Source of the DNA: a virus
Reading direction: 5' to 3' (one strand)
Length of the DNA stretch: 20,964 nt
IMG/VR virus record: IMGVR_UViG_3300032053_000644
The notes under the pieces were generated by a model. The model had not been told where the DNA came from. It was given only the letters and a program-made list of their open reading frames with translations, and made no database searches. Position 1 is the first letter of the stretch, and each line of letters starts with the position of its first letter. Made by a program: the position numbers and the translations under genes. This document shows, one piece after another, positions 15,828-16,235 of this stretch.

Positions 15828-16235
15828 TCAATCTCCTACTGCCTCGTACAGCGCTTGAAGTTTGAATGGTTTACGCAGTACAGCGGCCACTCCCGCTGCT
15901 TCTGTCTGTTGCGCAGTTACATCAACTACACCTGACATAATCACTACCCGCACGCCATCTAAATCTCCGCCATCCCGGAGGAGCTCGATCATTTCAAACC
16001 CATCACTATTGGGCATCGAGATATCCGTCAACAGAACGTCAGGGTAGTGCAACATGAACCGGGCCACCCCATCTACGCCATCTTCTGCTTCGAGCACGGT
16101 CCAGCCGCGCATGCCCAAAGCCTTGCGTACATAACCTCTGATGTCCTCATCATCATCAACTACGAGAACTGTGCGCACCCCGTAAGTGTAGGGCAGTACC
16201 CCGTAAAAAATGTACCTATCCGGGTATAAGGTCAT
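15828..16235 (-). CDS. stand-alone response-regulator receiver (REC, CheY-like) domain protein (about 120-135 aa)
   Basis: VLVVDDDEDIR acidic pocket, phospho-acceptor Asp in LLTDISMPNSDG, Thr/Ser in VVIMSG, Lys in LRKPF. No output domain. The N-terminal start is uncertain: ATG at 16235 has no SD and there is an internal GTG near VRTVLVV. Confidence 0.75.
   Translation of the reverse strand: MTLYPDRYIFYGVLPYTYGVRTVLVVDDDEDIRGYVRKALGMRGWTVLEAEDGVDGVARFMLHYPDVLLTDISMPNSDGFEMIELLRDGGDLDGVRVVIMSGVVDVTAQQTEAAGVAAVLRKPFKLQALYEAVGD

Follow-up and report, generated by a model that had tools for sequence, protein, structure and literature searches.

What might a phage do with a receiver domain that carries no output domain and has no kinase beside it? 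The question is raised by positions 15,828 to 16,235 of the IMG/VR virus record IMGVR_UViG_3300032053_000644, a stretch of 20,964 nucleotides that we refer to as the window. The initial annotation, made from the letters alone, had read in this place a stand-alone CheY-like receiver (REC) encoded in a phage-like genome. The analysis described here yields a canonical receiver that belongs to a sharply bounded family of phage proteins and heads an operon of constant layout. We give a probability of roughly one half to reading it as an orphan single-domain response regulator that receives its phosphate from a host donor, acts via protein contacts or phosphoryl uptake, and is carried as an accessory gene by phages of ~190 kb.

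The longest open reading frame (ORF) at this position encodes 135 amino acids (aa), on which all residue numbers below are based; in the 116-aa form that we argue for below, each number is lower by 19 (D71 becomes D52). Residues 23–133 match positions 1–110 of the 111-position PF00072 (Response_reg) profile with an E-value of 2.4e-20. The score in this profile check, which the initial annotation had proposed, is 73.2 bits against a gathering threshold of 30.2 bits; the 116-aa form scores 74.0 bits, and no other Pfam domain appears in the protein even at E ≤ 10. In an AlphaFold2 model built with 39 homologues (mean predicted local distance difference test score, pLDDT, 82.9; predicted template modeling score 0.79), five strands (E) alternate with five helices (H) in the order E22–26, H30–41, E46–50, H53–63, E67–71, H78–88, E96–101, H108–114, E116–121 and H126–133, which is the (βα)5 doubly wound fold. 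Comparison of the model with the PDB using Foldseek returned 573 matches at E ≤ 0.001; the top 50 are all receivers, with RssB-REC, CheY4, Spo0F, RR468 and KdpE among the best at root mean square deviations of 1.7–2.0 Å over 110–118 columns. At the sequence level, the best phmmer match in the PDB is 3lte (E 2.6e-12). The stop codon falls two residues past α5, leaving no fused output domain, and 31 of the 39 family members are 113–127 aa long; the longer ones differ only by N-terminal start calls that extend into conserved intergenic DNA. The end-to-end profile match, the (βα)5 model and the missing output domain bear out the description of the protein as a stand-alone receiver.

The active site is intact. 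Across the 39-member alignment the acidic pocket is kept in every sequence (D27, Asp in 38 and Glu in one, together with D28 and D29), the phospho-acceptor D71 in LLTDISMP is invariant, and S101 in IMSG and K122-P123 in LRKPF (K122-P123-F124) are found in all 39. Gly occupies T+1 in every sequence, Ser or Thr occupies D+2, and Met-Pro follows without exception at D+3/D+4. An invariant small residue at T+1 is, in terms of receiver enzymology, compatible with access by small-molecule donors. All of the signature positions that the initial annotation had listed are therefore present and conserved, and the Asp/Thr/Lys triad, the absence of which it had named as a reason to abandon the assignment, stands on proper alignment, with Ser at the Thr position. 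REC is a canonical receiver with a complete set of phosphorylation residues, from which phosphorylation competence is predicted.

Whether this frame is translated at all was the second point on which the initial annotation had staked its claim, naming an untranslated antisense artefact as the alternative. Synteny statistics here and below refer to nine loci, namely the window (L001), L006, L007–L010 and L186–L188. Pairwise comparison of the nine orthologous genes by the Nei-Gojobori method gave ratios of nonsynonymous to synonymous substitution (dN/dS) of 0.06–0.28 in pairs with unsaturated dS (for L009 and L010, dN 0.09 and dS 0.74), meaning that the minus frame encodes a protein under purifying selection and that an antisense artefact is ruled out. 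Three overlapping ORFs of 60–120 aa do lie on the plus strand opposite REC, which is what a chance or antisense origin would have in its favor, and they are noise; against the Pfam E-value, 42 homologous clusters and a minus-frame dN/dS well below 1, such an origin has a negligible probability. The GC content and third-position GC content of REC (0.53 and 0.50) are similar to those of neighboring genes and thus give no sign of recent transfer.

The ORF spanning 15,828–16,235 holds up as an ORF, but its first codon does not hold up as the start. Among the 39 homologues, 23 begin at M/V-K-T (within M/V-K-T-V-L-V-V), a position that corresponds to GTG 16178 in the window, and six begin later. The ATG at 16235 is particular to this genome, the other eight loci of the nine-locus alignment having no ATG there. 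Depending on the genome, the conserved CTTATACC block lies 54, 55 or 56 nt from the start codon, a distance thus not kept to a multiple of 3; residues 1–20 of the 135-aa ORF are modeled at a pLDDT of only 53–64. GTG 16178 is most likely the true start. Upstream of it, between 16179 and the divergent gene at 16253, conservation is seen in the DNA and not in an encoded protein, and falls into three blocks (CTTATACC, CTTTTACGG and CC-TACACT). The −10-like hexamer, which reads TACACT, TACAAT or TATGCT, stands exactly 6 nt ahead of the GTG or ATG in all nine loci, and the window contains a single copy of the composite motif where 0 are expected. The fixed placement of the hexamer 6 nt before the start suggests that the REC mRNA may be leaderless or near-leaderless. 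A simple sigma-70 consensus scan found no promoter in the conserved intergenic region, and Rfam returned nothing for it. On the plus strand, GGTATAAG could serve the divergent 87-aa gene.

The family to which REC belongs is narrow and phage-borne. A search of 5.8 billion proteins retrieved 42 clusters at E-values of 3e-46 to 3e-31 and 59–71% identity, all carrying PF00072 only, and the next match drops to an E-value of 2e-9 and 39% identity, leaving the family as a sharp island. Its members were found only on phage-type contigs, three IMG/VR contigs of 187–190 kb among them, and the identical protein was found on five metagenomic contigs, the longest of 47.9 kb. A search of 185,579 species genomes of bacteria and archaea gave no member and a best segment identity of 39–43%; the family is therefore no recent capture from a sequenced host lineage. 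Generic receivers flooded a scan of metagenome contigs with the family alignment, and no family member was recovered from it. Within the family, the active-site loops, β2-α2 (EAEDGVDGVARFMLH; entropy 0.40) and β4 are nearly invariant. The usual kinase-docking helix α1 is variable (entropy 1.34), and α4, which belongs to the usual α4-β5-α5 output face, shows the weakest conservation of all elements (entropy 2.39) and a lower model confidence. This pattern, as read from the alignment, fits constrained phosphoryl chemistry together with one conserved contact surface.

In Verrucomicrobiota, proteins of 340–490 aa (L029, L030, L032, L036, L038, L039, L044, L045, L047 and L051) carry an N-terminal receiver of ~35% identity that shares GWxVLEAEDG with the phage family, and the C-terminal domain that follows is itself conserved (KFWGVRGSIPTPG...GGNT.CVE). 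The pattern used in the search favored proteins of this kind. The nearest cellular receivers were considered as a guide to the host and rejected, since the enrichment of Verrucomicrobiota follows from the pattern WxVLEAEDG that was searched for.

Placed beside known receivers, the phage protein resembles the bacterial single-domain response regulators CheY, Spo0F, DivK and CpdR in consisting of REC only, in its length of ~116 aa, in its (βα)5 fold and in its full active site; unlike them, it is phage-encoded, with no kinase, che or phosphorelay genes in its vicinity. Its identity to any cellular receiver found is no higher than 39–43%, and it scores below every NCBIfam equivalog cut-off. The label "CheY-like" survives in the generic sense of the fold, but not in the sense of chemotaxis CheY, an assignment that we rejected. 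The scores against NF007901 (43.1 bits against a cut-off of 189) and NF041367 (50.7 against 200) fall far short. At the switch position equivalent to CheY Y106, three before the conserved Lys, the window protein has V119 and the 39 family members have Leu (34), Val (2) or Phe (3), so that 36 of them carry Leu or Val where CheY is aromatic. No cheA, cheW or mcp gene was found in the scanned window ORFs or within ±10 kb of REC in the nine loci. The best NCBIfam model is CpdR, the ClpXP-priming regulator of alphaproteobacteria (NF046022; 67 bits, E 1.5e-18), which aligns end to end over residues 1–114 of the 116; the next model reaches 54 bits. Equivalence to CpdR was rejected on its cut-off of 180 bits.

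The cREC domains of jumbo phages, which have been linked to RNA ligases and polynucleotide kinase (PNK; Iyer et al. 2021, PMC7824862), share with REC a phage-borne, stand-alone REC fold of ~110 aa encoded close to genes for nucleic-acid repair. The likeness does not extend to a sequence match, the window protein being a canonical PF00072 receiver, and membership in cREC_REC (PF20274) was rejected: REC has no match to the profile at E ≤ 10, and hhalign against the cREC protein of a related phage (L189) gave a probability of 1.5%. That protein, which matches PF20274 only, is encoded at L189:11963-12301 (minus strand; contig Ga0451576_0000125), two genes from an SNF2 gene orthologous to that of the window and in the company of Metallophos, HNH, nSTAND3-AAA and RtcB genes. 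Related phages thus have REC-fold proteins of two different families close to this SNF2 gene.

Receivers have been found in viruses before. PHROGs 731, 5982 and 20458 match the window REC at 43–65 bits, and BFVD contains ~27 viral REC folds, including a phage "CheY-like receiver" of uncultured Caudovirales, a "response regulator" and the 149-aa CDS-30 protein of Alteromonas phage V22; viral histidine kinases are listed in BFVD as well. Several of the virus-annotated receivers, which also include giant-virus hybrid kinases, are short or stand-alone; IMG/VR holds stand-alone, output-bearing and hybrid-kinase forms, and a preprint on phages of ammonia oxidizers lists CheY and two-component genes. 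Compared with these, the family described here forms a tight clade apart, in a conserved gene context of its own, at no more than 27% identity to the receivers in BFVD and below 40% to those in INPHARED. No work on the function of a phage receiver came to light in our literature searches. Virus-encoded receivers as such are already known; this family is new and well defined within a functionally unexplored kind.

A partner kinase was sought around REC. Pfam scans of the window, which took in nearly all gene-like ORFs of at least 80 aa and left out a few small ones (for example 13432..13704, 13821..14063 and 4651..4893), revealed no HisKA, HATPase_c, Hpt or CheA domain, in keeping with the initial annotation, which had noted no cognate kinase in the window. 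No kinase or Hpt domain was found in a further 10 kb of the same contig (~31 kb in total), nor was a HisKA, HATPase_c or Hpt domain found within ±10 kb of REC in eight other genomes, which with the window make up the nine loci. The search covered ~20–30 kb, or 10–15%, of each ~190 kb genome. The only HATPase-like match near the REC loci is a rIIA-type HATPase_c_3 protein beside rIIB. Within ±10 kb in the nine loci, REC is not part of an adjacent or same-operon classical two-component pair.

REC heads an operon, divergent from the adjoining one, in all nine loci. The order is REC, then p91 (in eight of the nine), an SNF2 ATPase, small ORFs, an HAD-PNKP phosphatase gene (HAD_PNKP, four or five genes downstream of REC depending on the gene call) and several uncharacterized proteins. 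REC and p91 are separated by 2–4 nt or overlap by 4 nt, and SNF2 overlaps p91 by ~23 nt; the type represented by L006 (at least 24 contigs) lacks p91, and there REC runs 8 nt into SNF2. The 29 clusters of p91 homologues are 65–80% identical and all 89–93 aa long. The p91 protein is predicted to have a small all-β core (AlphaFold2 pLDDT 86–90) and ends in an invariant CxxCG...DDQHAHA-COOH motif that, judging by its residues, possibly binds metal. A profile search of 1.84 billion representatives added a few remote relatives of 75–84 aa that retain CxxCG..D.HVHA. There was no Pfam, PHROG or NCBIfam match for p91 and no fold match in the PDB (best E 0.22).

The SNF2 orthologues downstream of REC are 77–84% identical in all nine loci, and the SNF2 family is far wider than that of REC: it counts 1331 homologues at E ≤ 1e-10, many of which lie on contigs of 130–200 kb. 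No fusion to REC was seen in the best 120 of these 1331 homologues or in the 29 homologues of p91. SNF2 relatives of 54–62% identity (L105, L189 and L190) have no REC upstream; because these distant relatives keep SNF2 without REC, REC is a lineage-specific accessory gene and, on this comparison of gene orders, an addition at the head of a pre-existing operon, as is p91. PADLOC yielded only generic SNF2 and REC similarities and no defense-system assignment. Some SNF2 orthologues (P0094, P0105, P0107, P0116, P0118, P0121, P0126 and P0137) are 710–830 aa long compared with the usual ~480, and at L009:10681-11388 some ~700 additional bases separate p91 from the part of SNF2 that was matched. These longer genes suggest an insertion, possibly an intein or homing element. 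Several small ORFs of the window near the DUF1281_C gene (among them 17102..17449 and 17424..18068) are rich in CxxC pairs. Coordinates of the REC locus are collected in Table 1.

Table 1 Coordinates of REC, its codons, the divergent intergenic region and the flanking genes (positions of the window)
Feature	Position	Strand	Basis
Maximal receiver ORF, 135 codons	15828..16235	−	ORF list of the window
Most likely receiver coding sequence, 116 aa, GTG start	15828..16178	−	PF00072, family alignment, AlphaFold2, dN/dS
D27/D28 codons	16157..16152		
D71 codon (phospho-acceptor)	16025..16023		
S101 codon	15935..15933		
K122 codon	15872..15870		
5' extension of the maximal ORF to ATG 16235; probably untranslated	16179..16235	−	overlaps conserved promoter-like region
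Intergenic region between REC (−) and 87-aa gene (+), 74 nt	16179..16252	.	nine-locus alignment
Conserved block CTTATACC	16230..16223	−	
Conserved block TTTTACGG	16208..16201	−	
−10-like TACACT	16190..16185	−	
p91, 91-aa orphan protein, begins 4 nt past the REC stop	15548..15823	−	29 clusters, AlphaFold2
SNF2-family ATPase/helicase, 480 aa (public gene call), 23-nt overlap with the end of p91	14128..15570	−	Pfam SNF2-rel_dom and Helicase_C; PHROG 62 DNA helicase
87-aa gene, first of the opposite operon; strong Shine-Dalgarno AAGGAG at 16243..16248	16253..16516	+	adjoins REC in 8/9 loci
DUF1281_C (Api92-like, ferredoxin-like) with A2L-type zinc ribbon, after the 87-aa gene	16509..17156	+	Pfam

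The window has no close DNA match among the 50,697 deposited phage genomes of INPHARED. REC homologues of 64–65% identity lie on IMG/VR viral contigs of 187,070, 188,569 and 190,250 bp and on JGI contigs of 190,551 and 100,386 bp. The related loci also encode T4-type rIIB with the rIIA-like HATPase_c_3 protein, thymidylate kinase, dCMP deaminase, endonuclease VII and T5orf172, and more distant relatives, reached via SNF2, encode a GpA-type terminase and a fused β-β' multisubunit RNA polymerase (RNAP). In two of the latter (L105:1-5346 and L190:1-605), the RNAP is a single fused protein that exceeds 2100 aa and is encoded within 10 kb of SNF2; L190 also has an InPase match. The phage-like character ascribed to the genome is upheld by the 187–190 kb viral relatives and by rIIA/rIIB, terminase and phage multisubunit RNAP in relatives. 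The closest cultured phage is Salmonella phage Arash, an "orphan" myovirus of 180.8 kb that shares only SNF2 in the region (39.5% identity). Its homologue, gp217, directly follows the RNAP subunit gene gp216 (β in GenBank, β' in PMC10585845) and is abundant in the virion proteome along with RNAP subunits (PMC10585845); SNF2 helicases linked to RNAP in jumbo phages have been proposed to act in a RapA-like role (Iyer et al. 2021, PMC7824862). Association with RNAP and the virion makes SNF2 an interesting neighbor; it does not link SNF2 to REC.

Several other genes of this lineage deserve mention. An 893-aa Major Vault Protein (MVP)-like gene at 1698..4379 (plus strand; Pfam MVP_shoulder 85 bits, Vault_3 37 bits) is conserved in the related phages L007, L008, L186 and L187. 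Viral MVPs in gut phages are the subject of a preprint (10.1101/2023.11.10.566534); relative to the gut-phage proteins as outlined there, the window gene belongs to a different, environmental lineage of ~190 kb phages. A stand-alone Peptidase_C39 domain of 145 aa (7655..8092, plus strand; 66.6 bits) lacks the ABC-transporter portion that usually accompanies it; it is also conserved in L006, and in L105 it is fused to a longer protein upstream of SNF2. The window further contains a tRNA-Ala(TGC) at 131..204 (plus strand) and a DUF7873 protein at 450..1187 (plus strand; 296 bits), with DUF7873 also present in L189, which has no REC. The same contig, ~6 kb past the right end of the window, carries a Tad3 (PF25185) anti-defense-type gene (L193:16257-16733), and beyond the window there are also VWA, T5orf172, DUF7694 and a second LigD_N-type ligase.

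How, then, might REC act? In the reading that we prefer, a host donor (a histidine kinase, an Hpt protein or acetyl phosphate) would phosphorylate D71 after infection; a host source is proposed because no phage donor was seen. Having no output domain, the phosphorylated REC would act by protein-protein contacts or by taking up phosphoryl groups. Two variants come into question, each of them tentative, and the evidence does not separate them; the roles put forward in the initial annotation, a phosphate sink or decoy or an input module for the neighbors, likewise stay at the level of proposals. REC could, as a competitor or sink, drain a host two-component pathway or rewire it, which the variable α1 and α4 would fit and which we slightly prefer; or, with somewhat less confidence, it could be a phospho-switch coupling the state of the host to the co-expressed p91 and SNF2, which the invariant α2 surface and the fixed operon position would fit. 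Several points weigh against the host-donor reading and its variants. With ~20–30 kb of each ~190 kb genome covered, there is room for a distant phage kinase, and both the donor and the target of REC phosphorylation are proposals drawn from sequence. Gene packing is tight throughout the genome, and co-operonic placement with p91 and SNF2 is therefore a weak functional link. The sink variant does not explain the very strong conservation of α2, and the switch variant is weakened by the poor conservation of α4, the usual output face.

Taken as an explanation in its own right, control of phage machinery would have phosphorylated REC regulate SNF2, with or without p91, and so gate phage transcription or replication as a split REC-SNF2 regulator. 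The fact that REC directly precedes p91 and/or SNF2 in all nine loci, with gaps of 2–4 nt or overlaps and, in the L006 type, the 8-nt overlap with SNF2 itself, speaks for this possibility, as do the conserved β2-α2 surface, the Arash SNF2 homologue that adjoins RNAP β' and is abundant in virions, and the fused β-β' RNAP within 10 kb of SNF2 in relatives. We hold it only tentatively, because SNF2 evidently works without REC (1331 matches, with 54–62% identical relatives lacking an upstream REC), no REC fusion occurs in the best 120 SNF2 homologues, p91 is missing in the L006 type and gene overlaps are common genome-wide. A more specific form, in which REC is a phage-owned phospho-sensor that reads host phosphorylation (acetyl phosphate or a kinase) and, with the Zn-motif protein p91, switches the RNAP-associated SNF2 ATPase, is more doubtful again. 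It is unlikely that REC is one half of a phage-encoded two-component system with its kinase or Hpt elsewhere in the ~190 kb genome. Hybrid kinase-REC ORFs of 492–921 aa on other IMG/VR contigs, the viral histidine kinases in BFVD and the 10–15% coverage of each genome leave this some weight, against which stand the nine loci and ~31 kb of the present contig, where the sole HATPase-like match is of rIIA type. At a slightly lower probability still we place a phosphorylation-independent adaptor or pseudo-receiver, for example one of the CpdR/RssB type that primes a host AAA+ protease when unphosphorylated. CpdR is the best NCBIfam model and the RssB receiver the best Foldseek match, but 67 bits is far from a cut-off of 180, the Foldseek ranking among receivers is essentially flat, and the active-site residues, which pseudo-receivers usually lose, are all invariant. 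Very improbable is a phosphoesterase of the cREC type acting on cyclic or terminal nucleic-acid phosphates together with neighboring repair genes (the HAD-PNKP phosphatase, DNA ligase): the association of jumbo-phage cREC with RNA ligases and PNK (PMC7824862), the PF20274 gene of L189 near SNF2 and RtcB, and the HAD_PNKP gene downstream of the window REC are met by the failure of both profile and hhalign comparisons and by an invariant canonical Ser/Lys-Pro signature.

What the evidence now supports is an annotation-level finding and not a new mechanism, a finding that is plausible rather than startling. Phage genes that tap bacterial two-component signaling are almost unstudied, and the REC family offers a clean experimental entry point, being small and conserved, with an intact active site, within one phage lineage and in a constant operon. 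If the phospho-sensor form were true, it would let a phage time its own transcription or replication by means of a two-component receiver, and no response regulator encoded by a virus would have been shown to have a viral output before REC. If REC drains or reads host phosphorelays, it would represent a new route of host takeover, or of host-state sensing, by lytic phages.

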